Shown in pieces: positions 44,751-59,436 of a DNA stretch of 64,000 bases. Location: NCBI GenBank assembly GCA_963626675.1, contig CAVFXW010000001.1:8232-72231 (forward strand). Direction: 5' to 3'. This DNA comes from Clostridium sp. CAG:452. GTDB taxonomy: Bacteria; Spirochaetota; Spirochaetia; Sphaerochaetales; Sphaerochaetaceae. Both the position numbers and the translations under genes were made by a program. The notes beneath the pieces were generated by a model. It made no database searches, was not told where the DNA came from, and saw only the letters and a list, made by a program, of their open reading frames with translations. The first letter of the stretch is position 1; each line of letters begins with the position of its first letter.

Positions 44751-46169
44751 ATGGAAAATCTGTTCATTTTTCAGAACAATGATGAGATAGAAAGGCTTTC
44801 TGTACAGAACAAGCTTCTCTTTCCATATGAAAAGAAGGTTATGGACAAACTTTTCTTAGGGAGGAGCAATCTCTCCGTATTGGATATAGGTGCTAATGAC
44901 GGCAGTAAAACGTCCTCTCTTTTTTCAGATAGCAGAGTAGGAAGAGTCATTGCACTTGAATACAATGCACTTCTTGTGGAGAAAGCCGAGAGACAGAAAA
45001 AGGATGACCGTTTTTCCTTCTATACAGTAGATGTGGAGAAGGCTGATTATAAGAGCTTATTGAAGAGAGTGATGAAAGAGTCTTCTCTAAAAGGTTTTGA
45101 TATCATATACATATCATTTGTTCTAATGCATCTTAAGGAAAGCGAAGCGCTTCTCATCTCTCTTAAGGAATTTCTCAATTGTGGAGGAACTATCGTTATT
45201 ACGGAAGCTGATGACCTCTCGTCGCATCTTACTCCCGATGAAAATGGACTTCTTGAGACATTTCTTTCGATTCTCGATAAGGACAAGTATTCTGGTAACC
45301 GACGTCTCGGACACGATATTGAAAATATTGTGAAAAGTGCGGGATATGGGGATATAACTATCCACTGTGATGGCGTTTCGGCTTTTCCTGGGGAGGAGGA
45401 GAAGAAAAAAGATATCTATAAAACATTCTTTTCATATCTACCGGAGGATGTTGATATTCTTTTGAGTGAAGATGAAAAAAACAGTGAATACAGAGAATGG
45501 AAGAAGTGGATAGATTCGAATTATTTGTCACTCAAAGAGCTTATAGAGAGTCCTTCGTCCTCAATTTCCATGGGGATGAAGATACTTACTTGTCGTAAGA
45601 CGATTTTCCATTCTGTTCCTCTTGAGGAAAGTGAAATAAACTCAACTCTTCTTCTTATGGATGAATGTGTCGGTAAGAACCTTTACAATAAAGATGATCT
45701 ATCTAAGGCAATTAAATCTTGCGATGAGTTCTTTATGCTTTATAAGACTGAAGAGGGTGTCATAGGCGGATACATATATTACTTTCTTACCGATAAGGAG
45801 ATGCTCTCTTCTTCAGGTAAAATACCACGTAAGCAGTTAGACAGTGTCTATAAAGGCAATAAGTGCGCACGTATTCAATCCGTTGGAGTGAGAAAAGAGT
45901 ATAGTGGGTTTGGTCTTGGAACGAGGATGATCAAAGAGGCTCTTCTTGACAACAAAATGCGTGGTGTGGAGGCTGTATATTGTGTATGCTGGGCGCCAAA
46001 TGGAGAGGTTCCGCTTGCTTTCCCTCTCTATCAATCGGGATTTTCCCATCTCATGAAAATCAGAGACTACTGGGCTGAAGAAGAGAGCCTTGTCTGCCCG
46101 TATTGCTCTGGTCGCTGTCACTGCAACGCTGAAGTTTATTATAAAATATTGAAGGAGGAGTGTAGATGA
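44751..46169 (+). CDS. Class I SAM methyltransferase - GNAT acetyltransferase fusion with C-terminal CxxCx3CxC cluster
   Basis: MTase motif I VLDIGANDGSKTS and post-I VIALEYN. GNAT motif A IQSVGVRKEYSGFGLGTRMIKEAL. The tail is LVCPYCSGRCHCNAEVY. Confidence 0.7.
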   Translation: MENLFIFQNNDEIERLSVQNKLLFPYEKKVMDKLFLGRSNLSVLDIGANDGSKTSSLFSDSRVGRVIALEYNALLVEKAERQKKDDRFSFYTVDVEKADYKSLLKRVMKESSLKGFDIIYISFVLMHLKESEALLISLKEFLNCGGTIVITEADDLSSHLTPDENGLLETFLSILDKDKYSGNRRLGHDIENIVKSAGYGDITIHCDGVSAFPGEEEKKKDIYKTFFSYLPEDVDILLSEDEKNSEYREWKKWIDSNYLSLKELIESPSSSISMGMKILTCRKTIFHSVPLEESEINSTLLLMDECVGKNLYNKDDLSKAIKSCDEFFMLYKTEEGVIGGYIYYFLTDKEMLSSSGKIPRKQLDSVYKGNKCARIQSVGVRKEYSGFGLGTRMIKEALLDNKMRGVEAVYCVCWAPNGEVPLAFPLYQSGFSHLMKIRDYWAEEESLVCPYCSGRCHCNAEVYYKILKEECR

Positions 46170-48187
46170 AACTCAAGCTCTTACCCAAATTCATAATTTC
46201 ACTATGTGTTGTAGGTCTCGTTTTTATAGTGAGTGTCTCTCTTTTCGGTTATCTTACATCTAAAAGATATCTTGAGGAACTTTATGCAGAGCGTGTAATG
46301 ACGAACAGTAATACGATTGCTTCTCTTCTCGATAAAGAGGCTGTAAAGACTATCATTAGTGAAGGCGGGGAGAATACACAAGAGTACAAGACTATGTACA
46401 ATCTTTTCCAAGCCCTTAAAAAGGATGGTGATATTACATATCTATCTCTTGTTGTTCCCGGCAAGGACAGTGTTACATTTTACATAGATGCATTCGTTCC
46501 CGAGATGGGAGATAAAGAATCGGCTTTTCTTCCTTATGGGGCTGAGATTTTCTATAGAGATGCTGCCAATCCAGATGATCCTAACGACCTCGAGAAATAC
46601 TATGAGATATGGAATGCATATAAATTAAATAAAGGTCTCGATAAGCCACTTGTGACGGACAATAAGTATGGTTATAACTACACCGGCATTTCCGTTGTGC
46701 TCGATGAAAATGGAAAGGCCATTGCTGAGGTTCAATATATTCTGGACATGAGCGAGGTGAGATCATACCTCTTCTCATTCCTCAATAACATGATTTTGAT
46801 CTCATTTATAATAAGCGCCGTAACAATGGCTGCATACATTTTCTTTGTAAGAAAGATGGTAACTTTCCCTATTGGAAAGCTGACGAGTTTTACAGAGGAA
46901 ATAACAAAGACGAAAGATTTCGAGAATCAGAAAATAGAGATTAATACGGGGGATGAAATAGAGGCGCTCTCTTCTTCGTTTAATTTCATGCTTTTAGAGC
47001 TTGAAGAATATATAAAGAACCTTTCGATAGTTACACGAGAGAAGGAGAGGATAGGAACGGAACTTGATGTTGCACGTCATATACAGAGGAGCATGCTTCC
47101 GCACGCGATCCCTACATTACCTTGCCTCAATAAAATCGATATATATGCCACAATGACGAGTGCAAAGGAGGTCGGCGGCGACTTCTATGACTATTTTCTC
47201 ATCGATGATGATCACCTTGCCCTAGTTATGGCCGATGTTTCGGGTAAAGGAGTACCGGCTGCTCTCTTTATGGCGATAAGTAAGAGTCTTATTAAATCTG
47301 CTCTACAGAGCACCTTAAGTCCAAAAGAGGTATTAGAGAAGGTTAATAACCAGCTTTGTGAGAACAATGATGCAGGGATGTTTGTTACTGTATGGCTCGG
47401 TATACTCGATATAAAAAGTGGCGTTATGAAATGTGCCAACGCAGGACACGAGTTCCCCGTAGTTAAGCGCAATAACGGAAAATGGGAGCTCTATAAGGAT
47501 AAACACGGCTTTGTTCTTGCGGGCATGGAGGCATCGAAATACGTAGAGTATGAACTTAAATTCGATAAAGGCGATAAGCTCTTTGTCTATACCGACGGTG
47601 TTCCCGAGGCAACTGATGGTAACCTCGTCCTCTACGGGACAAAGAGAATGATAGACGCTCTCGATAGAACAGAGGGCCTATCTAGTCGTGAGAGCCTTGA
47701 GTATATTCAGAGTGACGTAAACAATTTTGTTGGCCATGTGGATCAATTTGATGATATAACAATGATGATGCTTGAGATAAAAGATTGTCCTCTTATAAAG
47801 GAGATTACCGTTACTCCGACACCAAAGTGTGTAGAGAGTGTCACATCATTTATTGAGGATATCCTATCTGATAGCGGGGCGCCATTTAAGACGATAGCAC
47901 AGGTGAATGTTGCAATAGACGAAATATTATCGAATATAATCTCTTACAGCGGGGCTGAAAAAGTGACTGTCAAATGTGCTTCTTCTCTCAGTGAGATAAA
48001 GATTGAGTTTTCAGATGATGGTAAACCATATGATCCGACTTCTTCTCCCGATCCTGATACCTCACTATCGGTGGAAGAGAGGAAGCTTGGAGGATTGGGT
48101 ATATTAATGGTTAAAAAGATAATGGACGATATAACATACATGTATAAGGAAAATAAGAACATCCTATCAATCAAGAAGGGCTGGTAA
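46166..48187 (+). CDS. Sensor PP2C (SpoIIE-type) phosphatase: TM - extracytoplasmic Cache-like domain - TM - HAMP - PP2C - C-terminal RsbW-like kinase domain
   Basis: Two TM segments flank about 170 aa. HAMP-like PIGKLTSFTEEI...IEALSSSFNFMLLEL. PP2C motifs EVGGDFYDY, LVMADVSGKGVPAALFM, YTDGVPEA and FDDITMMMLE. The kinase part has DEILSNII (N box), FSDDGKPYDP (G1) and GGLGILMVKK (G2). Confidence 0.85.
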   Translation: MKLKLLPKFIISLCVVGLVFIVSVSLFGYLTSKRYLEELYAERVMTNSNTIASLLDKEAVKTIISEGGENTQEYKTMYNLFQALKKDGDITYLSLVVPGKDSVTFYIDAFVPEMGDKESAFLPYGAEIFYRDAANPDDPNDLEKYYEIWNAYKLNKGLDKPLVTDNKYGYNYTGISVVLDENGKAIAEVQYILDMSEVRSYLFSFLNNMILISFIISAVTMAAYIFFVRKMVTFPIGKLTSFTEEITKTKDFENQKIEINTGDEIEALSSSFNFMLLELEEYIKNLSIVTREKERIGTELDVARHIQRSMLPHAIPTLPCLNKIDIYATMTSAKEVGGDFYDYFLIDDDHLALVMADVSGKGVPAALFMAISKSLIKSALQSTLSPKEVLEKVNNQLCENNDAGMFVTVWLGILDIKSGVMKCANAGHEFPVVKRNNGKWELYKDKHGFVLAGMEASKYVEYELKFDKGDKLFVYTDGVPEATDGNLVLYGTKRMIDALDRTEGLSSRESLEYIQSDVNNFVGHVDQFDDITMMMLEIKDCPLIKEITVTPTPKCVESVTSFIEDILSDSGAPFKTIAQVNVAIDEILSNIISYSGAEKVTVKCASSLSEIKIEFSDDGKPYDPTSSPDPDTSLSVEERKLGGLGILMVKKIMDDITYMYKENKNILSIKKGW

Positions 48188-48190
48188 AAG

Positions 48191-48661
48191 ATGAATGAAA
48201 ATCTGTTTCGTAAATCAAGTGTTGACAGGGTAAATTCCCCCGAAGAGCTCAATGACTACATCCGTGTCGCTTCTCCAAGCGTATGGCTTATTCTTTCTGC
48301 TATAGTTGCATTCCTCGTTGGAGTTGTAATCTGGGGAATATGGGGAAATATAGAGGTGACAGTAAAGGCCCCTGTAGTAGTAAAGGATGGTGTAGTGACT
48401 TGCTACGTAGATGATGTTTCATCTCTTGAGGAGGCCCTGGACGTTCGTATTGACGGAAAAATTGGCAGTATAAAGAGTATAAAGCGAACGCCGGTTGAGA
48501 TCACAGATGACTATGACCCGTATTTTCTTTATATCTCATCGTACTCGTCGGGATCATTTGCCTATCCAGTCACCGTTGAAATAAGTGGGCTTGAAGACGG
48601 AGTATACAGCTCGGAGATTGTGAAAGAGAGAATCAATCCAATCTACTTTATCATCCATTAG
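48191..48661 (+). CDS. Miniature HlyD-type (NHLM bacteriocin-system secretion protein-like) membrane-anchored protein
   Basis: LFRKSSVDRVNSPEELNDYIRVASPSVWLILSAIVAFLVGVVIWGIWGNIEV matches the characteristic N-terminus of NHLM/NHLP-system HlyD proteins. Only 156 aa. It starts 3 nt after the PP2C stop, and the next gene follows 9 nt later. Confidence 0.6.
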   Translation: MNENLFRKSSVDRVNSPEELNDYIRVASPSVWLILSAIVAFLVGVVIWGIWGNIEVTVKAPVVVKDGVVTCYVDDVSSLEEALDVRIDGKIGSIKSIKRTPVEITDDYDPYFLYISSYSSGSFAYPVTVEISGLEDGVYSSEIVKERINPIYFIIH

Positions 48662-48670
48662 GGGGAGATT

Positions 48671-50854
48671 ATGGAAAAGAAGAAGAGGTCTGCTCCTCCT
48701 ATAAAGGGTGGCGTTGCCAAAGTTCCTGTAGTTATACAGTTGGAGGCATTGGAATGTGGAGCTGCCGCTCTTACGATGATTCTTGAGTATTACGGTAAGT
48801 GGATTCCTCTTGAGAAGGTTCGTGCAGACTGTGGTGTCTCTAGAGACGGTTCGAATGCAAAGAATATTCTCAAGGCGGCACGCTCCTATGGCTTAAAAGC
48901 GAAAGGCTATAGATATGAGCCGGAAAAGCTAAAGGAGGATGGCGTCTTTCCGTGTATAATACACTGGAACTTTAATCATTTCGTGGTTTTATGTGGTTTT
49001 AAGGGAAATAAGGCCGTTATAAATGATCCTGCAAAGGGAACATACTCTGTTTCGTTTGAGACATTCGATAAATCATTTACCGGAATATGTCTCATGATGG
49101 AGCCTGGAGAGGATTTTGTCCCTGAGGGAAAAAAGAAGAGTGTAGCTTCATTTATAAAGAAAAAACTCAAGGGTACTGGTAGTTCATTCTCTCTCGTTGT
49201 CATTACGACTTTCATCTCATTTCTTATCGGCATCATAACGCCCGGATTTTCGAATGTCTTTGCAGATTATCTCCTCTCTGGAAAGAATATGGAATGGTTC
49301 ATGCCTTTCATGTACGGTATAACTGCAATATCGATCATACAGATAATAGTTGGGATAATACAGTCGGTGTATACTCTCAAGGTTAACGGAAAGATAGCGA
49401 TAGTCGCAAACAGCGAGTACATGTGGCATGTTCTGCGTCTTCCTATGGAGTTTTTCTCTGTTCGTATGGCCGGGGATATACAGGCGCGTCGGAGCCAGAA
49501 CGAGTCGATCGCTGGGACTATAATTAATACTTTTGCCCCTCTTTCAATTGAGGCTTTCATGCTTTTCTTCTACCTATTTGTAATGCTGAGGTATAGTATA
49601 GTATTGTCGTTTGTTGGGATTCTTTCGGTATTTTTAAATATGGCGGTGAGCTCATATATATCGAAAAAGAGAGTCAATTCCACTCGTGTTGCAAGTAGAG
49701 ATAACGGCAAGTTATATGGTGCGACGGTTGCGGGAATCGAGATGATAGAGTCGATTAAGTCCACTGGAGGAGAGAACGGTTTCTTCGAGAAGTGGTCGGG
49801 TTATCAGGCGAGTGTAAACTCCGGACAGGTGAAATGCACACGTCTTAATGCACTCTTTGGTCTCATACCTTCTCTAATAAGCATGCTTACCAATAATATA
49901 GTCCTATTGGGGGGTGTCTATCTCTGTCAGAATGGCGCATGGACAGTCGGTATGATAAGTGCGTTCTCCGGCTTTCTTTCCTCCTTTCTCTCTCCAGCAA
50001 TGCTCTTTGTCTCGGCATCGCAATCTCTTTTGGAGATGCGTACGAGTATGGAGAGGATTGAGGATGTTATGGAATATAAGACCGATATCCCGTACGCACT
50101 AGAAGGTGTAAAGGACGATGTAGAATACGATAAACTCAGCGGCAAAATAGAGCTTAGGAATGTTACATTCGGCTACTCACGTCTTGGAGAACCTCTTATT
50201 AAAGATTTCTCTATGACGCTTGAGAGAGGTCAGACTGTGGCCTTTGTTGGGCCATCTGGCTCGGGAAAATCGACATTGGGTAAGTTGATATCTGGGCTAT
50301 ATAAACCTTGGAGTGGAGAGATTCTCTTCGATGGAAAGCCTATAAGTGAAATAAACCATTCGGTATTCACCGGCTCAGTTAGCGTTGTGGATCAAGATAT
50401 TACGCTCTTTGAGGATACAATCGCCAATAATATAAAGATGTGGGACGACTCGATAGAGGACTTTGAAATGATACTTGCTGCAAGGGACGCCCAGATCCAC
50501 AGCGATATAATGCTTAGAGATGGAGGATACTCATATAAACTAATGGAGGGAGGAAAGGATCTATCGGGCGGACAGAGACAGAGGCTTGAGATAGCACGAG
50601 TACTAGCAGAAGATCCAACAATTATCATCATGGATGAGGCAACAAGTGCCTTAGATGCAAAGACGGAGTATTGTGTTGTCTCGTCAATTAGAAATAGAGG
50701 TATAACGACCATTGTTATCGCTCATAGACTCAGCACAATCAGGGATGCTGATGAAATCATCGTTCTCGACAACGGATTAGTTGTGGAGAGGGGAACTCAT
50801 GATGCTCTCTATAAGAAGGGCGGAGTTTATACTTCGCTCGTTTCCAACGAGTAA
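48671..50854 (+). CDS. Bacteriocin-processing ABC exporter with N-terminal C39 cysteine peptidase domain (NHLM ABC1-like)
   Basis: C39 catalytic residues in QLEALECGAAAL (Cys29), WNFNHFVVL (His) and INDPAKG (Asp). Six TM helices. Walker [10 protein letters not shown], signature LSGGQRQR, Walker B IIIMDEATSALD. Confidence 0.9.
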   Translation: MEKKKRSAPPIKGGVAKVPVVIQLEALECGAAALTMILEYYGKWIPLEKVRADCGVSRDGSNAKNILKAARSYGLKAKGYRYEPEKLKEDGVFPCIIHWNFNHFVVLCGFKGNKAVINDPAKGTYSVSFETFDKSFTGICLMMEPGEDFVPEGKKKSVASFIKKKLKGTGSSFSLVVITTFISFLIGIITPGFSNVFADYLLSGKNMEWFMPFMYGITAISIIQIIVGIIQSVYTLKVNGKIAIVANSEYMWHVLRLPMEFFSVRMAGDIQARRSQNESIAGTIINTFAPLSIEAFMLFFYLFVMLRYSIVLSFVGILSVFLNMAVSSYISKKRVNSTRVASRDNGKLYGATVAGIEMIESIKSTGGENGFFEKWSGYQASVNSGQVKCTRLNALFGLIPSLISMLTNNIVLLGGVYLCQNGAWTVGMISAFSGFLSSFLSPAMLFVSASQSLLEMRTSMERIEDVMEYKTDIPYALEGVKDDVEYDKLSGKIELRNVTFGYSRLGEPLIKDFSMTLERGQTVAFVGPSGSGKSTLGKLISGLYKPWSGEILFDGKPISEINHSVFTGSVSVVDQDITLFEDTIANNIKMWDDSIEDFEMILAARDAQIHSDIMLRDGGYSYKLMEGGKDLSGGQRQRLEIARVLAEDPTIIIMDEATSALDAKTEYCVVSSIRNRGITTIVIAHRLSTIRDADEIIVLDNGLVVERGTHDALYKKGGVYTSLVSNE

Positions 50855-50865
50855 GGAAGGATACT

Positions 50866-53049
50866 ATGGGTTGGTTTGATGAACAGATAAGAGAACGTAT
50901 ACAAAAAGATGATGATAACTTCGCAGATGCATTTGCTTCTCTTGCTTCTCTTGTTATGGGAAAGCGTATAACAAGGGCCTTGAATGAGGCTAAGTTTCAG
51001 ACGAAGTCCGCAATCGAGGAAATATTGAAATATTACCATATAAAGGCAGTTGAACTTCCCGATTGTGTGAAGGATGTAAACGATCAGCTTGAGTATTTAT
51101 TGCGTCCGAGCGGCATTATGAGACGGACGGTGAGCCTCAGCGACGGGTGGTATAAAGACGCTATAGGCGCGATGCTGGGCTCTCTTAAATCTGACGGCAC
51201 TCCTATTGCGCTTCTTCCCCATGGAACAAATGGATATAGGTATTTCGACAGCAGAAAAAAGAAGTGGGTGCGTGTTAATAAGGAAAGCGCCAAGGAGATA
51301 GATAGTGAAGCTATATGCTTTTACAAACCTTTTCCAATGAAAAAACTCGGCGTCAAGGATCTCCTCTTATACATAGTGGGATTGATGAATATTTCAGATT
51401 ATGTGGCTTTGTGTCTCATAACACTTGCTGTTTCCTTAGTCGGTCTTTTTACTCCGAAAATCCAAAGGCTTATTTACGGACCTGTGATAGAAGGCGGTAG
51501 CGCTGAGCTTCTATTTGCCGTATTCGGCTTCCTCATTTCAATCAGTGTTTCTCAGCTTCTTATCTCTTCTACGCGCTCTCTTATCATGGGAAGGCTATCG
51601 ACTAAAATGAATACAAGTGTGCAAGCAGCTGGGATGATAAGGTTACTCTCCCTTCCTGCGCAGTTCTTTAAGGACTACTCTGCCGGAGAGCTCTCGTCTC
51701 GTATGAATGCACTCAACTCTTTGTGCTCAGTGCTTGTAAGTACGATTTTTACGACAGGGCTCTCAAGTCTCTTTTCACTTATTTATATAACCCAGATGGT
51801 CCAATACGGGCCGCATTTGGTCATTCCGGGACTAATTGTCATTCTTGTAACTGTAATTTTCTCGCTTATTACTACGTTGGTTCAACTTAGGGTGAGTGAA
51901 AAGCAGCTTCTCCTCTCTGCTTCGGAGTCTGGGCTTGAGTATTCACTAATTACGGGAGTGCAGAAGATAAAACTCAGCGGGGCAGAGAAGAGAGCTTTTG
52001 CTAAATGGGCCGAGGCTTACACGGCAGAAGCGAGAGAGGAGTATGATCCACCGTTTTTCTTAAAGCTTAGCGGAGTATTTTCATCATGCATATCACTTGT
52101 AGGAACGATTGTAATATATTTCTTTACCATAAAGACTAATGTAAGTCTTGCGGATTATTATGCATTTAACAGTGCTTATGGCGCGGTGATGGGGGCATTT
52201 ACATCCCTTGTATCATTGTCAACAACGGCTGCAAGAATCAGACCACTGTTAAATATGGTGAAGCCTATAATCGAGACTGTACCTGAGACAGCACAGTCAA
52301 AAAGGGTGGTTACAAGACTTTCTGGTGCGATAGAACTTAACAATGTCTCTTTCCGTTACACCCCCGATGGGCCACTTATTCTTGACGATCTTTCACTTAA
52401 GATAAGGCCGGGACAGTATACTGCGATAGTAGGTGCAACAGGATGTGGTAAGTCGACTCTTATGCGTCTCATGCTTGGCTTTGAGACTCCGCAGAAGGGT
52501 GCCATCTACTACGATGGGATGGATCTTGCTTCTCTTGATCTCAAGTCATTAAGACGGAAAATCGGATCTGTAATGCAGAATGGGAAGCTCTTTCAAGGCG
52601 ATATCTACTCAAACATAGTAATAACAGCTCCATCTCTCGGCCTGGAGGAGGCATGGATAGCTGCAGAGAAAGCAGGGATTAAGGAAGATATAGAGAGAAT
52701 GCCGATGGGGATGCATACAATCATCAGCGAAGGAACGGGAGGTATTTCCGGTGGACAAAGACAGAGGATTATGATAGCCCGTGCAATAGCACCCAAGCCG
52801 AGGATTCTCATGTTTGATGAAGCGACAAGTGCACTCGACAATATTACACAGAAGATAGTTTCTGATTCACTTTCAAAGCTCAAGTGTACACGCATTGTAA
52901 TTGCACACCGTCTCTCAACAATAAAGGAATGTGACAGAATTATAGTATTGGACAAAGGTAAAATAGTTGAAGATGGAAAATATGATGAGCTGATTGCTAA
53001 AAATGGATATTTTGCATCTCTTGTTTCAAGACAGCGACTTGACGGATAA
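50866..53049 (+). CDS. Second ABC exporter with non-catalytic N-terminal peptidase-like domain (NHLM ABC2-like)
   Basis: N-terminal ~160 aa lack a catalytic Cys. PIALLPHGTNGYRYFD...EAICFYKPFP pattern as in NHLM-system ATP-binding proteins. Walker A GATGCGKST, ISGGQRQR, ILMFDEATSALD. Confidence 0.85.
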   Translation: MGWFDEQIRERIQKDDDNFADAFASLASLVMGKRITRALNEAKFQTKSAIEEILKYYHIKAVELPDCVKDVNDQLEYLLRPSGIMRRTVSLSDGWYKDAIGAMLGSLKSDGTPIALLPHGTNGYRYFDSRKKKWVRVNKESAKEIDSEAICFYKPFPMKKLGVKDLLLYIVGLMNISDYVALCLITLAVSLVGLFTPKIQRLIYGPVIEGGSAELLFAVFGFLISISVSQLLISSTRSLIMGRLSTKMNTSVQAAGMIRLLSLPAQFFKDYSAGELSSRMNALNSLCSVLVSTIFTTGLSSLFSLIYITQMVQYGPHLVIPGLIVILVTVIFSLITTLVQLRVSEKQLLLSASESGLEYSLITGVQKIKLSGAEKRAFAKWAEAYTAEAREEYDPPFFLKLSGVFSSCISLVGTIVIYFFTIKTNVSLADYYAFNSAYGAVMGAFTSLVSLSTTAARIRPLLNMVKPIIETVPETAQSKRVVTRLSGAIELNNVSFRYTPDGPLILDDLSLKIRPGQYTAIVGATGCGKSTLMRLMLGFETPQKGAIYYDGMDLASLDLKSLRRKIGSVMQNGKLFQGDIYSNIVITAPSLGLEEAWIAAEKAGIKEDIERMPMGMHTIISEGTGGISGGQRQRIMIARAIAPKPRILMFDEATSALDNITQKIVSDSLSKLKCTRIVIAHRLSTIKECDRIIVLDKGKIVEDGKYDELIAKNGYFASLVSRQRLDG

Positions 53050-53101
53050 TTCTCTTACAATACGGGAAATTATGCGTAATAATAATTAAAAGGATGAAAG
53101 A

Positions 53102-53533
53102 ATGAATAATTTAGAAAATGATTTTATTGAAAAAGTAAAGAATGCGAGAAGTGTTGATGATATCATAAATATTGCACACGAGAATGGAATTGAAATTAGA
53201 AGAGAGCAGGCACAGTTCTATTTTAACAATATGAAACAAGGCGAACTAACAGATGATGAGATATCATCTGTCTCAGGAGGCGGTTGTAGTAGCAGTAGAA
53301 GTTCCGTATCCTCATCAAAGAGCGATTTACGCCTCGGTACAGTCGTCACTCTTAAAAACAACGGACATACGTTCTCCTCTTCTGCTGCTTCGACAATTTG
53401 TAGTAACCCGAATTGTGGAAGCAACACGTTTTATATTTTGAGAAAAATAAGCGGCACTGATTATTATCTAATGGAATGTACCAAATGTAAGTGGACCTAT
53501 AATGCTTTAAGAGACAATATAACTGCTATTTAA
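53102..53533 (+). CDS. RiPP/bacteriocin precursor with Nif11-type leader and double-glycine cleavage motif; 83-aa Ser-rich, Cys-containing core
   Basis: The leader is MNNLENDFIEKVKNARSVDDIINIAHENGIEIRREQ...GELTDDEISSVSGG (Nif11 pattern F.EKVK....S.....IA.E.G.EI, then ELTDDE..SVSGG). The core has Cys at residues 62, 100, 105, 126 and 129. It sits between the exporter and an rSAM/SPASM gene. Confidence 0.8.
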   Translation: MNNLENDFIEKVKNARSVDDIINIAHENGIEIRREQAQFYFNNMKQGELTDDEISSVSGGGCSSSRSSVSSSKSDLRLGTVVTLKNNGHTFSSSAASTICSNPNCGSNTFYILRKISGTDYYLMECTKCKWTYNALRDNITAI

Positions 53534-53578: not shown

Positions 53579-54991
53579 ATGTATTACGTAATTAATCCGA
53601 ATATAGGAATAAGGAGTTGGTGGCGCTCTCCGTACTCTTATTACATGAAAGGTGTGAGGAATGCGTTTAGACTTACTCAAGAAGAATTTGAATTCCTTTA
53701 TAAGTGTGATGGTATTACAAATCTTGAGGAAGGAAGCCTTTCGAATAGAATGCTCAATCGAGCCATGATTATACCTTGTAAGAAGGGAGAAATGTCTCTC
53801 TCCTCATGGCAGAGAAAGATCTGTGACAATCGATATTTTCCTGCCATGAATTGGATGATTACCGGTAAATGCAACTACAATTGTCTTCATTGTTTCAATG
53901 CGTCAGATAATGCGCCTCTCATGAGTGAGTTCACGCTTAAAGAAGCAGAGCGCCTGATGGATGAAGCCGAGGAATGTGGAATCAACGCCTTTACAATAAC
54001 AGGTGGTGAGCCCATGTGTCATAAATCTTTCTTTGATATAATCGAGGGGATATATAAGAGAGGAATGTTCGTCGAAGAGCTTAATACGAATGGCTATTAT
54101 ATAACCCAGGATGCTCTCGATTCATTCAAAGCTATAGGATGCCATCCTCTCATAAAGATATCGTTTGATGGAGTTGCCCACCATGATTGGCTGAGAAACC
54201 GCCCTGGCGCAGAGGAGGATGCCCTCAGGGCAATAAAACTATCTGTTGAAAACGGCTTTCGGGTCAAAGTTCAGAGTAATGTTCATCGCAATAATGTCGA
54301 AAGTATGATTACCTCTGCACACCTTCTTAACAAAATTGGTGTCAGCGAGATGCGCCTTATTCGCACAACGGAAGCACCACGCTGGATAAAGAACGGAGGA
54401 TCAAATACACTCACCCTTTCTGAGTATTTCGACAGAATGCTCTCTTTTATAGAAGAATATTCAGCCTCGAGAGACAAAATGGAGATCGACATATGGCAGC
54501 TCTTACATCTTTACCCAGAAAGTAAATCCTATAGGCCACGTGCCGTAGAGTGCATCGAGGAAGAGTATAGGGACTCTCTTCCTGTGTGTCGCGGAAACAG
54601 GGGTATGGTCGCTGTGGCTGCTAACGGGAACTTATTTCCATGCCTTCAGATGTCAGGATACTACGAAACGCACAATTGGAAACTGGGCAATGTGAAAGAG
54701 AACGGCCTCAAGAGATATCTTCAGCATGGAGATTACCTTGAAGAAGTATGTACTACGGTAAAGGATCTCAAGGACAGTAATGAAAAATGCCGCCGGTGCG
54801 AATGGTTTAAGTATTGCGTCGGAGGCTGCAGGGCTCTAGCTCTTCTATTCAGTGGCGACAAAAAGGGTAGCGATATATCAAAATGTCTTTTCTTTAAAGG
54901 CGGTTATATGGAGAAGCTCAAGAATGTAATGAAAGACTGGCGTGATGTAAGCGGAGTTATGAAAAGTAGAGAAAATGTGAACATTACTTGA
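53579..54991 (+). CDS. Radical SAM / SPASM-domain peptide maturase with N-terminal RRE-like extension
   Basis: CNYNCLHC (Cys98/102/105) rSAM cluster and TITGGEP. SPASM motif CRGNRGMVAVAANGNLFPC (GX4C) ... CRRCEWFKYCVGGC (CX2CX5CX3C) plus a trailing Cys. The first ~90 aa carry RLTQEEFEFLYKCDGITNLEE, which is PqqD/RRE-like. Confidence 0.9.
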   Translation: MYYVINPNIGIRSWWRSPYSYYMKGVRNAFRLTQEEFEFLYKCDGITNLEEGSLSNRMLNRAMIIPCKKGEMSLSSWQRKICDNRYFPAMNWMITGKCNYNCLHCFNASDNAPLMSEFTLKEAERLMDEAEECGINAFTITGGEPMCHKSFFDIIEGIYKRGMFVEELNTNGYYITQDALDSFKAIGCHPLIKISFDGVAHHDWLRNRPGAEEDALRAIKLSVENGFRVKVQSNVHRNNVESMITSAHLLNKIGVSEMRLIRTTEAPRWIKNGGSNTLTLSEYFDRMLSFIEEYSASRDKMEIDIWQLLHLYPESKSYRPRAVECIEEEYRDSLPVCRGNRGMVAVAANGNLFPCLQMSGYYETHNWKLGNVKENGLKRYLQHGDYLEEVCTTVKDLKDSNEKCRRCEWFKYCVGGCRALALLFSGDKKGSDISKCLFFKGGYMEKLKNVMKDWRDVSGVMKSRENVNIT

Positions 54992-55054: not shown

Positions 55055-56476
55055 ATGAAAAAGAAATTGCTAATTACCATTTTATTGGCAATAGCTGTGC
55101 TTATTACAATCAACGCAGCAACTGTCGATGAAATACTTGAGAGCGCGAAGAAGACAAGTCCGTCATATCAAAATATTTTATTGAACTATCAAAACGGGCT
55201 TCTTACAGTCGCTGAACTTGGAAAAGATGATGAAATCGGGGTTGCACTTTCTGTGACGGTTGACCCGTTGAGCGAGGTCTACTCTGGCGGTAGCACTACA
55301 CCATCTTCACTTACTGATACAAGTAGTAAAGGGCTTACAGCCACGCCTACAGCCCAAATAACGTTTCCTAATGATGGGAATACTACAATCAGTGGAGGCG
55401 CGAGGATTTCAACAAGATATGAAGATGGCTCTACTTCAATAAGTGGCGAGGTCGGGGTTTCTCATACTTTTGATTTTTCAGGATATTCTAGTAAGCATTC
55501 TGAGGATTTGAAATATGCCTCTACAAAATACAGTACGGAGCTTACATACAGTAAAGCAGAGCTCTCGTTTGAGACGAGTGTCCTTAAAATGATTTCATCG
55601 ATTCTTAGCGCTGAAAGTTCAATTAAGAGGGCTCAATTCAATCTTAAAAAACAGCAGACAGCATTCGATAAACTTACTGCTTTAAAAACATATTCAGAAG
55701 ATTCGAGTGTTTATAAGAGCACTCTCAATACACTCAATGCTCTTGAGAGTTCACTCTCTTCGACAGAGGAGCAATATAATAGCCTTCTTTCAAGATACAA
55801 GACTCTTACCGGCCTAGCATGGGAGGGCGTTGATGTGGGAGAGCCTCCCGTACTTACGCTGACAACATACGAGAATGGTAATACAGAAGTTATGATAGAA
55901 TCTTTGAATGCCGAAAGCAGTGAAGAATCTTATAAGAGTACGCTTGCTTCTTCAAAGCCCTCAAAGCTTGTAACTTCGTTATCTCTTTCGGCATCAAGTA
56001 GCAAGTATGATATTTCGGGTTCTTTGCAATATGCCGGTAACAATTGGAGTATTACTGCAAAGCCTGGGGTAAGTATATCTAGTGACGGCGATACAACACC
56101 GAGCCTTACATTAGCGGGAAGCTGGAAGAATAATGAAGGCTCTATCACATCTGGCTCTGCACTTAGTAGTGCTTTGAACAATGCCAAAGTAGCAGCCAAT
56201 AATTACCTTGAGGCACTTTCAACATATGAGGAGAATGCAACGAATTATGCTCTCGAGATTGTAGAATGGAATACCAAACTCTCTCAAGCTAAAGCCGATT
56301 TGGAGTATAAAGAGACTCTTCTCGAGAGTGCCCAGGCTCTTTATGACTTGGGTTTGAATACATCGGAGGAACTCGAGAGTGCCGAGCTCGAGTACACTCT
56401 AAGTAAGACCGACTATGATAAGGTGATAATCGAAGGATTATCTCTAGAACGTGATTTAGCAATATTTGCACTATAA
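55055..56476 (+). CDS. TolC-like outer-membrane efflux protein (divergent, Ser/Thr-rich inserts)
   Basis: Signal MKKKLLITILLAIAVLITINA. OEP-like start TVDEILESAKKTSPSYQNILLNYQNG. Two helical repeats, the second ending LESAQALYDLGLNTSEELESAELEY. Precedes an adaptor/ABC set. Confidence 0.6.
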   Translation: MKKKLLITILLAIAVLITINAATVDEILESAKKTSPSYQNILLNYQNGLLTVAELGKDDEIGVALSVTVDPLSEVYSGGSTTPSSLTDTSSKGLTATPTAQITFPNDGNTTISGGARISTRYEDGSTSISGEVGVSHTFDFSGYSSKHSEDLKYASTKYSTELTYSKAELSFETSVLKMISSILSAESSIKRAQFNLKKQQTAFDKLTALKTYSEDSSVYKSTLNTLNALESSLSSTEEQYNSLLSRYKTLTGLAWEGVDVGEPPVLTLTTYENGNTEVMIESLNAESSEESYKSTLASSKPSKLVTSLSLSASSSKYDISGSLQYAGNNWSITAKPGVSISSDGDTTPSLTLAGSWKNNEGSITSGSALSSALNNAKVAANNYLEALSTYEENATNYALEIVEWNTKLSQAKADLEYKETLLESAQALYDLGLNTSEELESAELEYTLSKTDYDKVIIEGLSLERDLAIFAL

Positions 56477-56493
56477 GGAACAGAAAATAGATT

Positions 56494-57588
56494 ATGGATA
56501 AGAAAGAAGAAATATTGACAGAAAGTGAAAGACAAGAGAAGAAATTGAGGGAAGCTCAAAAAGCAAGAAAGAGAAGAAAAAGAGTAAAGACATTCCTAGG
56601 GTGGATTATTGTTATATTCATTGTAGCGCTTGTTCTCGTTTGGTTCTTAAAAATGAAGAAGGACAGTGAGGCTCAAATTGCTGCTCTTCAGAATGCATCG
56701 AATGAGATTGAATATACTGTGACAAGAACGAATTACGTAAAGTCTATAGATGTTTCCGGTAATGTCGTAGCATATGACAAACAGGAAGCGAACTTCCGCT
56801 CCGCAGGTGCTGTAACGGGTGTGTTTGTAAAAGTCGGGGACAAGGTCGAGAAGGGACAGATTCTTGCGACTATAGACTCAACCGAGCAGCAATATAATCT
56901 CAAGCAGATCGAAAATCAGATTGCAGAGGCCAAAATTACAGGTTCTTTACAGACTCTCGAGTCTTTGGAGCTAAAGAAAAGTAATGCAGAAGAGCAGCTA
57001 TCATATACAACACTTACAGCGAACTTTGATGGAATTGTATCGAAGGTAAGTATAAGTGAGAATGACTATGTTACGGCTGGAACTGCAGTCATTACGGTTA
57101 TTGATGTTTCGAAACTCAAGACTACTGTCGAAATCGATGAAATCGATATGCAATACATAGAAGAGAATCAGACAGCGACACTCTCGTTTGATTCTCTTCC
57201 TGGTGAGAGCGTTGTTGCATATGTTTCATACATCCCGATGGAAGGAAGATATACAACACAGGGAATTGGTGTTGTTGATGTAGAGATGACAATAGAAAAT
57301 CCTCCGTCAGGACTCAGAACTGGATTTACATTCACCGGTTCGATTGATCTAGAACAGGATGTGAATATTCTTCTTATTCCGTCTTCATCTGTCTCCTCCG
57401 AGCGTGGCGGAAGAACTTTTGTTACTGTAAAGAAGGCGGACGGCCAGAGTGAGAGAAGAAGTGTGACGGTTTCGTATCTAGGAGAAGGATACAGCGAAGT
57501 ACTCTCAGGCCTCAGTGAGGGAGAAGTCATTGTTTATTCTCAGTCATCCGGTGGTGGCATGGGCTTCATGATGAGAGGAGGATTTTAA
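56494..57588 (+). CDS. Efflux periplasmic adaptor (HlyD/MacA family)
   Basis: N-terminal TM. Lipoyl-like GAVTGVFVKVGDKVEKGQILATID, a coiled coil, then LTANFDGIVSKV and beta-barrel/MPD parts. Confidence 0.8.
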   Translation: MDKKEEILTESERQEKKLREAQKARKRRKRVKTFLGWIIVIFIVALVLVWFLKMKKDSEAQIAALQNASNEIEYTVTRTNYVKSIDVSGNVVAYDKQEANFRSAGAVTGVFVKVGDKVEKGQILATIDSTEQQYNLKQIENQIAEAKITGSLQTLESLELKKSNAEEQLSYTTLTANFDGIVSKVSISENDYVTAGTAVITVIDVSKLKTTVEIDEIDMQYIEENQTATLSFDSLPGESVVAYVSYIPMEGRYTTQGIGVVDVEMTIENPPSGLRTGFTFTGSIDLEQDVNILLIPSSSVSSERGGRTFVTVKKADGQSERRSVTVSYLGEGYSEVLSGLSEGEVIVYSQSSGGGMGFMMRGGF

Positions 57589-58283
57589 TGGCGTCTAGTG
57601 TTATAGAGCTTCAGAATGTCAGGCGCTATTACCTCGTGGGTGAATACGTTGTCAAAGCTCTTGATGATGTATCGCTTACCATAGATAGAGGCTCATTTAC
57701 CGCAATAATGGGACCTAGCGGAAGTGGTAAGTCTACTCTTATGAACCTTATCGGTTGTCTTGATACTCCAACAAGCGGGTATATTACAATCGGTGGTGAG
57801 CTTACAAACGGAATGGACGAGTCTGAGCTTGCATTTTTGAGAAATCAGAAGATAGGCTTTGTCTTCCAACAGTTTAATTTGCTTGGAAAACTCAATGCTC
57901 TGGAGAATGTTATGACACCGATGCTCTATTGTCTTGTCCCTCACAAGGAGAGAAAGGAGAGAGCTGAGGCAATGCTGGAAAAGGTAGGGCTCAAAGATAG
58001 AATGAAACATCTTCCGAGCGAGCTATCGGGTGGGCAGAAGCAGAGAGTTGCTATTGCACGCGCTCTTGTCAACGATCCCGATATTCTCCTAGCCGATGAG
58101 CCTACTGGAGCTCTTGATAGTAGAACGGGCCATGAGGTTATGGGGCTTTTTCAGGAATTGAATGAAGAAGGACGTACAATCGTCTTTGTTACACATGATA
58201 GAAAATTGGGAATGCAATGTGCAGAACAGGTTTTCATTAAAGATGGAAGGATAGTAGAGGAAGATGTTACTCGAGAACTTTAA
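57588..58283 (+). CDS. MacB/LolD-type ABC transporter ATP-binding protein
   Basis: [47 protein letters not shown] and VTHD motifs. 1-nt overlap (TAATG) with the adaptor gene. Confidence 0.9.
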
Positions 58284-59436
58284 ACTAGCAATTAAGAGTA
58301 TGGTAACAAGTAAGATGAGAACATTTCTTTCTCTTCTTGGTATTGTGATAGGAGTCGGTTCGGTTGTAGCTATTATGACGCTCGGTGAGAGTGTGAAGGG
58401 CTCGATCAATGATGAGATGAACCTCTCGGGTATGGACCTTGTTACTCTCAGTAACACGGGATCAAATACAATTTTTGATGAAGAACTAGGCTATACAATC
58501 AAGGAAAAGATACTCGGAATAGATGATGTTGCGATCCAGACTGTTGGAAATGCAACGATTAGACATGCCCAGGAATCGGCAAGCGCAACTGTATATGGTG
58601 TATCCTCAACCTTTGGTGATATACAGCAGCTGGAAATAATGGACGGTTCTTTCTTCTCGAAGGAAGACAATATGGAGAAGGCTCAGGTTGTAGTGCTTGG
58701 TTATGATGTTGCAATGGATCTCTTCCCCGGAGGAGATGCTCTCGGAAGTTATGTATCAATCTTCAGAACTCAAGCGAAGACATATAAGGTAATTGCTGTA
58801 CTCGAAGACACTTCAGAATCGACTATGTCTGATACAAACAGCAATGTTTATATACCTTACCACACATACAGCCAGAATATTAGGAAGATAAACAGTGTCC
58901 CGAGGTACTACTTTAAAATCAATGAAGACTATTCTGCAACCGATGTATCATCATCGATAAAATCCTATATGCAGAATATAGCATCATCGAATGAGTATGT
59001 GGTCTCCACTGCGCAGGAGTTTGTCGATATGGCAAACTCGATTATGGAGACGCTTACGACATTCCTATCCGCAATTGCCGCTATCTCATTGATCGTCGGT
59101 GGAATAGGGATTATGAATATAATGCTTGTCACGGTTGTCGAGAGAACAAGAGAGATTGGTGTGAGAAAGGCTCTCGGCGCGACCCCGAAGACCATAAGGC
59201 ATCAATTCCTTGTTGAGGCACTTGTTTTATCGGTATGTGGCGGTATATTTGGAATAATATTTGGGATTATTGTAAGTTATGTTGTTGCGACTGCGCTTTC
59301 ATATAGCCTCAAGTTATCGCTGTTGTCTATTGCGCTTTCTATTGGATTCTCATCGGCTGTCGGTATATTCTTCGGCTGGTATCCTGCAGCTAAGGCATCG
59401 TCGCTTGATCCTATTCAGGCACTATCATATGAGTAA
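58264..59436 (+). CDS. MacB-type ABC permease (MacB periplasmic domain + FtsX 4-TM)
   Basis: LAIKSMVTSKMRTFLSLLGIVIGVGSVV start, a large periplasmic loop, C-terminal FtsX part ERTREIGVRKALGA...WYPAAKASSLDPIQALSYE. Confidence 0.85.
   Translation: MLLENFKLAIKSMVTSKMRTFLSLLGIVIGVGSVVAIMTLGESVKGSINDEMNLSGMDLVTLSNTGSNTIFDEELGYTIKEKILGIDDVAIQTVGNATIRHAQESASATVYGVSSTFGDIQQLEIMDGSFFSKEDNMEKAQVVVLGYDVAMDLFPGGDALGSYVSIFRTQAKTYKVIAVLEDTSESTMSDTNSNVYIPYHTYSQNIRKINSVPRYYFKINEDYSATDVSSSIKSYMQNIASSNEYVVSTAQEFVDMANSIMETLTTFLSAIAAISLIVGGIGIMNIMLVTVVERTREIGVRKALGATPKTIRHQFLVEALVLSVCGGIFGIIFGIIVSYVVATALSYSLKLSLLSIALSIGFSSAVGIFFGWYPAAKASSLDPIQALSYE

Follow-up and report, generated by a model that had tools for sequence, protein, structure and literature searches.

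What does the small gene at positions 53102–53533 (forward strand) of a Clostridium sp. CAG:452 contig encode, and on which of its Cys residues, if any, does the radical S-adenosylmethionine (rSAM) enzyme encoded directly downstream act? The gene lies within a 64,000-nucleotide stretch of contig CAVFXW010000001.1, the whole of which is referred to here as the window, and its product combines a leader ending in a double glycine with a long core containing five Cys residues. On balance, we think it probable, though far from assured, that 53102–53533 encodes the precursor of an rSAM-dependent folded mini-protein exported by a peptidase-containing ATP-binding cassette (ABC) transporter (PCAT), in which four of the Cys residues bind zinc and the remaining one, Cys62, is the target of the enzyme. 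The comparisons described below point to the leader-proximal Cys62, and not to the four ribbon Cys residues, as the key residue for the chemistry. The precursor gene (open reading frame, ORF) and its parts, including those assigned with the predicted local distance difference test (pLDDT) score of a structural model, are as follows.

53102–53533, forward strand: precursor ORF, 143 aa, ATG at 53102
53090–53094, forward strand: Shine-Dalgarno-like AAGGA, 7 nt before the ATG, read from the sequence
53102–53281, forward strand: Nif11-type leader, residues 1–60, ending ...GELTDDEISSVSGG, with the double-glycine cleavage site
53285–53287, forward strand: Cys62, second core residue, invariant in 26/26 homologues
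53288–53326, forward strand: Ser-rich flexible linker, residues 63–75 (SSSRSSVSSSKSD), from the homologue alignment and pLDDT
53327–53530, forward strand: folded beta-rich core domain, residues 76–143, from the homologue alignment and AlphaFold
53399–53416, forward strand: knuckle 1, C100-SNPN-C105 followed by G106, Cx4C in 26/26 homologues
53477–53488, forward strand: knuckle 2, C126-TK-C129, Cx2C in 26/26 homologues, 19–20 residues past knuckle 1

As originally noted, a GG pair occupies residues 59–60 (nt 53276–53281), the five Cys residues lie at positions 62, 100, 105, 126 and 129 with the spacing Cx4C-x20-Cx2C for the last four, and nine Ser residues fall within the first 15 core residues, with a further FSSSAAS tract; as Ser makes up 9.6% of residues locally, the excess in these 15 residues has a binomial P of ~2e-6. 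The core comprises 83 residues, namely Gly61-Cys62, a 13-residue Ser-rich linker and a beta-rich domain of ~68 residues. Its description as unusually long holds in comparison with classical RiPPs (peptides made on the ribosome and modified after translation), but not within its own family, in which the 218 unique cores have a median length of 67 aa, with the 90th percentile at 82 aa.

A word-index homology search with the whole precursor retrieved only the protein itself. Relatives were reached via the neighbourhoods of the rSAM homologues, where the window core was aligned with two members of precursor arrays (L006:2257–2742 and L027:5782–6267), and the profile of those three cores yielded 26 proteins with 37–47% identity, hereafter the subfamily. 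These proteins have 21 invariant columns in common, consisting of the five Cys residues (C62, C100, C105, C126, and C129) and 16 others, which include G79, L84, G88-H89, F110, I112, L123, W131-T132-Y133, A135, and N139. Because 26 homologous proteins share these columns, 53102–53533 is, judged by conservation, a real gene, and the conserved homologues rule out a spurious ORF. The identical precursor protein was also found on five contigs from different samples. In addition, the expected conservation of the Cys pattern was seen in full, with all five Cys residues present in 26/26 homologues and the knuckle spacing Cx4C-x19/20-Cx2C kept in 26/26; this invariance supports a functional role for the five-Cys pattern.

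In contrast to the Cys residues, the Ser tract and the C-S-S-S-R sequence that starts at Cys62 are not shared. Residues 63–75 correspond in the homologues to a linker of 13–17 residues of unrelated sequence rich in S/E/G/P/A/N/T/D, and the filling of this linker with Ser (9/13) is confined, among the 26 subfamily members, to the species-level cluster of the window protein. The variable linker of the relatives rules out that the Ser tract is a modification site conserved among them, and the alignment indicates that the tract is flexible linker filling only. The resemblance of C-S-S-S-R to the (C/S)-x-(P/A)-x-R motif of sulfatases did not survive the same comparison: CSSSR was carried by 0/25 homologues, (C/S)-x-(P/A)-x-R occurs nowhere in the 26 subfamily members, and two variants 94–97% identical to the window protein have CSGSR in place of CSSSR. 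In the profile of 161 family cores, position +2 downstream of the Cys is T/G/S/A and position +4 is D/G/Y, not R. CSSSR as a formylglycine motif is thus refuted by its absence in the homologues and by the CSGSR of near-identical variants.

Two further invariant elements, G88-H89 (53363–53368) and W131-T132-Y133 (53492–53500), are not obviously structural; they could form a surface for binding, supply a fifth ligand to the metal or accept a crosslink.

The leader matches TIGR03798 (Nif11-like leader) over residues 6–60 with 24.9 bits, which is below the cut-off of 32.3, whereas 4/10 sibling and related precursors pass this cut-off with 34–38 bits; Pfam Nif11 matches 8/26 subfamily members. Since the window leader aligns throughout with the siblings that pass TIGR03798, it is homologous to the Nif11-type leaders by transitivity, its own score being sub-threshold. 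It ends ...DDEISSVSGG and is followed by a hypervariable core, as in the double-glycine precursors of the Nif11-like type.

The structure of the precursor was modelled with AlphaFold using the 26-sequence alignment as input. In the model, the leader forms three helices (residues 3–12, 18–27, and 34–44), whereas residues 47–73, a stretch that includes the GG site and Cys62 as well as the greater part of the linker, have pLDDT values <50 and are predicted to be disordered. The core domain has pLDDT values of 62–73 over residues 71–100 and 83–88 over residues 101–143, with strands at residues 81–84, 110–115, 121–126, 132–136, and 140–142. The last four Cys residues are located in the loop before strand 110–115, at the end of strand 121–126 and in the turn before strand 132–136, in agreement with the zinc-ribbon-like placement proposed for them; two Cys knuckles, conserved in 26/26 homologues, flank a beta-hairpin. 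The proposal of a folded mini-protein exported via a RiPP-type leader likewise fits the model, as well as the PCAT genes of the nitrile hydratase leader microcin (NHLM) type, which score above the curated cut-offs.

A Foldseek search of the precursor model against the PDB gave no match with E<=0.001, the nearest, non-significant shapes being SH3/Tudor-like small barrels with target-normalised TM-scores of 0.6–0.7 (E ~0.1). The core was recognised by no Pfam or NCBIfam model, and the best weak Pfam echoes were IBR, PyrI_C, and zf-DNL (E 0.08–0.13). Among 482 CxxC motifs in 317 family cores, Pro occupies position +1 in 15%, compared to 4% in the background, and Gly follows the second Cys in 34%, compared to 11%. 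This bias corresponds to the classical CPxCG zinc-knuckle signature and, at the level of sequence, favours predicted metal sites over thioether donors. Because the CxxC motifs of the family carry this signature, the four ribbon Cys residues of the window core are favoured as metal ligands.

The knuckle bias bears directly on a different explanation, which we regard as unlikely, namely that the product is a multi-bridge sactipeptide or ranthipeptide in which several or all five Cys residues are thioether donors, giving a thioether-stapled, zinc-free protein similar to QhpC after its modification by QhpD. The invariance of all five Cys residues would be expected from such a product, as would the Cys content of ~10% in the family cores (cores >=40 aa), and thioethers are the typical products of SPASM enzymes with Cys-rich substrates. 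A protein of 80–100 aa is crosslinked by QhpD (PMC8326336, PMC10114670), and in the producers, which are anaerobes, disulfides would presumably be unavailable. The Pro and Gly enrichment of the CxxC motifs, conversely, is that of zinc knuckles, and the ribbon Cys residues are located at the hairpin ends of a confidently modelled domain. The remaining arguments against multiple thioethers come from the wider family and from the enzyme.

Precursors were searched for in 81 sources, consisting of 80 rSAM-anchored loci and the window. Directly upstream of almost every copy of the rSAM gene is at least one ORF of 115–160 aa in which a long Cys-rich core comes after the same leader (...GELSDDELDNVSGG), and 229 precursors were found in 70/81 sources, with up to 11 per locus. 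In a HMMER scan of 1.84 billion representative proteins with the subfamily profile, the whole protein was common to six clusters (E<1e-30); the totals rose to 904 clusters at E<1e-10 and to 2,252 at E<1e-3, and of the 150 best, the majority of those ranked below these six match in the leader only (profile positions 1–70). Many of the leader-sharing clusters repeat the architecture with unrelated sequence, that is, GGGC, a low-complexity linker, a beta-strand and CxxC...CxxC.

In these hypervariable cores, the leader-proximal Cys is the only position conserved family-wide. A Cys within five residues after VxGG, usually as GG-G-C, was found in 92% of 181 rSAM-anchored cores, 97.6% of 123 leader-anchored cores and, in a metagenome sample anchored on precursors, 98% of 129 cores. 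Even SH3-like cores that contain no other Cys have it, such as that of L073:3617–4009, which is directly upstream of the rSAM gene (L073:4098–5516). Members with the leader-proximal Cys alone thus still adjoin the enzyme, and the enzyme is highly conserved (55–76% identical across loci) while the cores and their Cys patterns are unrelated; both findings argue against thioether formation from the ribbon Cys residues. For the single-Cys members, any enzyme-dependent mass change must involve that Cys, and these members would be the cleanest substrates for establishing the chemistry.

Further cores resembling SH3-type barrels, with few Cys residues or a single one, were seen at L084:6967–7359 and L047:4152–4595 and in P0168, P0182, P0262, and P0274. 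The arrays differ in size: L064 and L084 contain 11 precursors each, and L006:2257–7993 has 10 tandem precursors, the first of which is orthologous to the window precursor, between the gene for the second ABC subunit and the rSAM gene, whereas the window has a single precursor and no precursor remnants in the 52-bp and 45-bp gaps. Decayed precursors, cut soon after a GGGC-x-x-x-DG start, are among L014:399–653, L038:5761–6024, and L068:7232–7486. A second precursor class with the same type of leader was seen near the same cassettes (L012:1077–1490, L012:2038–2469, and L027:10817–11654); its cores are Gly- and Cys-rich, of ~47–69 aa, with repeated CxC motifs (e.g., DCACVAGGGGTVYDDDEHFCPCIVYGQGST...).

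The enzyme that accompanies these precursors is encoded in the window as follows.

53579–54991, forward strand: radical SAM/SPASM maturase, 470 aa, matching Pfam Radical_SAM, Fer4_12, and SPASM

The maturase has an N-terminal domain (residues 1–85) resembling a RiPP recognition element (RRE), the CX3CX2C motif at C98/C102/C105 and SPASM Cys residues at positions 337, 355, 404, 407, 413, 417, and 436; CX3CX2C and these seven canonical SPASM Cys residues are invariant in 121/121 homologues. Its AlphaFold model has a pLDDT of 86, and the N-terminal domain is beta/alpha and RRE-like. The Foldseek neighbours of the model (PqqE, SkfB, SuiB, anSME, TigE, and ChlB) are all peptide or protein maturases, and they do not discriminate the reaction. 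With an adjacent rSAM enzyme having SPASM and RRE-like domains, and a core containing five Cys residues, the setting of the precursor is that of the sactipeptides and ranthipeptides. More than 1,600 relatives of the maturase (clusters at 90% identity) were found at E<=1e-20, the best 120 being 62–99% identical, and the enzyme is encoded, at 55–76% identity, in 80 genome loci, which come from gut Clostridia, spirochaetes, Bacteroidales, and other groups. The source annotation of the relatives says nothing beyond 'radical SAM protein'.

Among the best 25 of the 68 matched NCBIfam models, none reached its cut-off for the maturase. The best score was that for heme b synthase (113 bits, cut-off 500), and StsB and PapB gave 93 bits (cut-off 625) and 61 bits (cut-off 340), respectively, so the enzyme is far under these and other thioether-synthase cut-offs, which also speaks against the multi-thioether product. 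The PapB-like motif C-x3-D was found in only 32% of the family cores.

In the RRE-like domain, Cys43 is kept in 120/121 homologues and Cys82 in 118/121. To our knowledge, a conserved Cys pair is not usual in RRE domains; an extra metal site and a disulfide are possibilities.

The enzyme comparison also bears on oxidation of Cys62 without any crosslink, of the formylglycine type or another, as made by the anaerobic sulfatase-maturating enzyme (anSME). What is conserved family-wide is a Cys alone, with no partner residue, and anSME is among the top structural neighbours of the maturase and gives the best sequence match in the SPASM region among solved structures (31.7 bits, compared to 23.1 bits for CteB). 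However, the score of the maturase for TIGR03942 (anSME) is 62.8 bits against a cut-off of 349.45, lower than its scores for several unrelated SPASM families, neither the subfamily nor the family profile shows the motif (C/S)-x-(P/A)-x-R, and CSSSR is lost already in the near-identical CSGSR variants. We regard this oxidation as very improbable.

The export genes lie upstream of the precursor.

48191–48661, forward strand: HlyD-like secretion accessory, 156 aa, matching the N-terminal 52 positions of TIGR03794 only
48671–50854, forward strand: PCAT subunit 1, C39 double-glycine peptidase and ABC permease/ATPase, TIGR03796 at 887 bits (cut-off 853.3)
50866–53049, forward strand: exporter subunit 2, ABC permease/ATPase without peptidase domain, TIGR03797 at 747 bits (cut-off 709.4)

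The cassette is co-directional, in the order short HlyD-like protein, C39-peptidase ABC exporter, second ABC subunit, precursor or precursors and one rSAM/SPASM enzyme, and it recurs in about 36 loci. Subunit 1 also matches Pfam Peptidase_C39 (E=1e-35), and each of the two ABC subunits has a counterpart in 36 rSAM-anchored loci. The HlyD-like protein scores 40 bits for TIGR03794 (cut-off 156) and has homologues in 28 loci with a median identity of 36%. The adjacent matches to TIGR03796 and TIGR03797, both above cut-off, together with the short HlyD-like protein, are those of NHLM-type export. The window precursor is separated from its neighbours by gaps of 52 bp and 45 bp, the rSAM gene starting 45 bp downstream. 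Between the precursor and the rSAM gene, no attenuator hairpin was indicated (z-score -0.47), and a promoter and terminator scan gave sites no more numerous than in shuffled sequence.

The loci have no second modifying enzyme in common. Beyond the cassette, the only genes widely common to the loci are those of regulators, namely an ECF-type sigma factor and PP2C, STAS, and RsbW-like proteins. Because no other gene family is widely common to the loci, regulators aside, the rSAM enzyme is, as far as gene content shows, the sole conserved tailoring enzyme of the cassettes.

This coupling has to be set against a simpler scheme, in which the zinc-ribbon mini-protein is exported unmodified, the leader serves PCAT secretion only, and the rSAM enzyme is idle on this precursor or does something else. 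Unmodified class II bacteriocins are among the substrates of PCATs, the model predicts a core that folds on its own, and a minority of the family cores lack the leader-proximal Cys. All of this would suit unmodified export, which we nevertheless hold to be quite improbable, since the rSAM gene starts directly after the precursor, its enzyme has an RRE-like, predicted leader-binding domain, and the leader-proximal Cys is kept at 92–98%, for which nothing in the folded domain accounts. Moreover, of 26 metagenome loci that were anchored on precursors and span at least 12 kb, 21–22 have the rSAM gene, and the one of the four exceptions that was inspected contains a truncated rSAM remnant.

At L107:11463–11792, the rSAM gene is cut to its first 109 codons, the RRE-like part, beside four intact precursors.

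For the interpretation that we favour, in which Cys62 is the target and the other four Cys residues bind zinc, the following mechanism is proposed. The RRE-like domain of the enzyme would dock on the conserved leader, and this docking would place Cys62 in the active site whatever cargo domain follows. Cys62 would then be modified, serving as the thiol donor of a single sacti- or ranthi-type thioether to a C–H position in the linker or the domain; a thioether is the most likely chemistry at this residue. A precedent for such a role is found in CteA, the third core residue of which, Cys21, binds the open iron of an auxiliary cluster of CteB (PMC8326336). The four ribbon Cys residues would most likely hold one structural Zn2+ rather than donate thioethers, and the Ser tract would act as a flexible spacer only. 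The C39 domain would cut after Gly60, and the ABC pair would export the 83-aa product. The hypervariable cores, the multi-copy precursor arrays and the spread across phyla suggest that the product may serve in competition or signalling between gut bacteria.

Several findings weigh against this interpretation. The leader-proximal Cys is missing in 2–8% of the cores in the three samples, and no acceptor residue is conserved at a fixed spacing from the Cys in the family cores. The core domain has no significant zinc-ribbon structure in the Foldseek search of the PDB and no Pfam family. The maturase reaches the cut-off of no characterised sacti- or ranthisynthase family, and two further Cys residues of its SPASM region are conserved (C391 in 120/121 and C325 in 114/121 homologues), so that an open auxiliary-cluster site for a substrate thiol cannot be inferred. 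Alternatively, it may be for cleavage, for export or for a later reaction of a housekeeping enzyme that the conserved Cys is needed.

A further reading, possible but somewhat unlikely in our estimation, is that the family represents a new class of rSAM-modified secreted mini-proteins, in which the modification of the leader-proximal Cys falls outside the known sacti- and ranthi-type bridges. Examples would be ring closure over a very short range at the newly formed N-terminus, a reactive handle made from the Cys, or a tether, and the cargo behind the Cys would consist of interchangeable folded domains, that is, zinc ribbons, SH3-like barrels, and Cys knots. In that case, hundreds of unrelated small proteins of gut bacteria would be matured by one conserved enzyme.

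The genes that flank the cassette in the window are listed below.

44751–46169, forward strand: methyltransferase-GNAT fusion, Pfam methyltransferase and acetyltransferase matches
46166–48187, forward strand: HAMP-PP2C(SpoIIE)-RsbW-like kinase fusion, Pfam SpoIIE and HATPase_c_2, abutting the cassette
55055–59436, forward strand: outer-membrane factor, membrane-fusion and MacB-type ABC genes, Pfam OEP, TP096X_N, BSH_CzcB, MacB_PCD, and FtsX

The HAMP-PP2C-RsbW-like fusion is a probable regulator, and L061 and L064 have homologues with 50% identity immediately upstream of the cassette; it possibly belongs to the system. The methyltransferase-GNAT fusion is beside the cassette in just two other loci, again L061 and L064 (37–38% identity), and is a possible, weakly linked accessory tailoring enzyme. 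The pair of fusions lies upstream of the export genes at 44751–48187 in the window, at L061:6569–10200 and at L064:8809–12450. An ECF-type sigma factor is encoded near the cassette in 21 loci and, together with the recurrent PP2C, STAS, and RsbW-like genes near the cassettes, suggests regulation by partner switching. L061 (labelled Absicoccus, Firmicutes) and L064 (Alistipes communis, Bacteroidota) have near-identical precursor arrays and flanking genes, indicating either recent horizontal transfer or unreliable bin labels.

The outer-membrane factor, membrane-fusion and MacB-type genes were found downstream of the rSAM gene only in the window and in its nearest relative (L006:9468–13800), with 58–93% identity, and possibly provide outer-membrane passage or immunity in this diderm host, which the TP096X_N match marks as probably spirochaetal. 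L006 is labelled Faecalibacterium, at odds with a diderm-type gene, which suggests mis-binning or transfer.

The combination of a Nif11-leader precursor, a PCAT and an rSAM enzyme is of a known general kind (PMC2887384), and the nearest mention is in a mining paper of 2014, which reports uncharacterised clusters of NHLP/Nif11 precursors (NHLP, nitrile hydratase leader peptide) with rSAM and PCAT genes in anaerobes (PMC4289311). No description of the present family was found in the literature search, the coverage of which excludes most subscription journals. The scale of the enzyme family, the near-universal leader-proximal Cys and the interchangeable folded mini-domain cores appear to be new; they were found neither in the curated models nor in the source annotation or the searched literature. 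The enzyme accounts for more than 1,600 clusters at 90% identity and the precursors for at least 900 clusters at 50% identity, and the enzyme family, present in several phyla, occurs abundantly in the gut metagenomes of humans and animals. If the favoured interpretation is correct, a single rSAM enzyme family matures, and helps to export, hundreds of unrelated folded small proteins, which would blur the border between RiPP peptides and modified proteins. Such a system would be a natural, prochlorosin-like case of leader-guided scaffold diversification with radical chemistry and mini-protein cargo, and its products would form a large unexplored set of secreted gut effectors.

Compared with known systems, the core domain resembles the knuckle domains of zinc ribbons and rubredoxins in its two CxnC knuckles flanking a beta-hairpin and in the family-wide CPxCG bias, but, unlike them, has no significant Pfam or PDB match. 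With anSME, the enzyme shares the SPASM architecture, a Cys as the target (here a proposed one) and the best SPASM-region sequence match, whereas the recognition motif is found in no homologue, the score is far under the family cut-off and there is no sulfatase context. As with QhpD and QhpC, an rSAM/SPASM enzyme is paired with a Cys-containing protein of 80–100 aa and not with a short peptide. QhpC, however, is a periplasmic enzyme subunit with a single conserved sequence that follows a Sec-type route, whereas the substrates here are hypervariable and multi-copy, with a Nif11 leader and predicted PCAT export, and no dehydrogenase genes are nearby.

The SCIFF ranthipeptides, in which CteB forms a Cys–Thr gamma-thioether, also combine an rSAM/SPASM enzyme having an N-terminal RRE with a Cys-rich core. 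SCIFF precursors are ~45 aa with a short leader, and we know of no PCAT export cassette for them, whereas the precursor here is 143 aa and matches only the Nif11 leader model, with no SCIFF or other NCBIfam match. The position of the leader-proximal Cys recalls that of CteA, two to three residues into the core (PMC8326336), although the window enzyme aligns only weakly with CteB (~23 bits in the SPASM region).

Overall, the comparison extends to the Nif11/NHLP-leader RiPP systems with NHLM-type export, such as the prochlorosins (Haft, Basu & Mitchell 2010, PMC2887384; TIGR03798, TIGR03794, TIGR03796, and TIGR03797). Unlike in those systems, the modifying enzyme here is an rSAM/SPASM enzyme and not LanM or a cyclodehydratase, the cores are foldable domains of 60–90 aa and not peptides of 15–30 aa, a Cys at core position 1–3 is near-universal, and the hosts are gut anaerobes represented by metagenome-assembled genomes only. 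Like those systems, the present one combines a long, structured leader that ends in VxGG with a C39-peptidase ABC exporter, a second ABC subunit and a HlyD-like protein, and has one enzyme for many hypervariable precursors, here up to 11 per locus.

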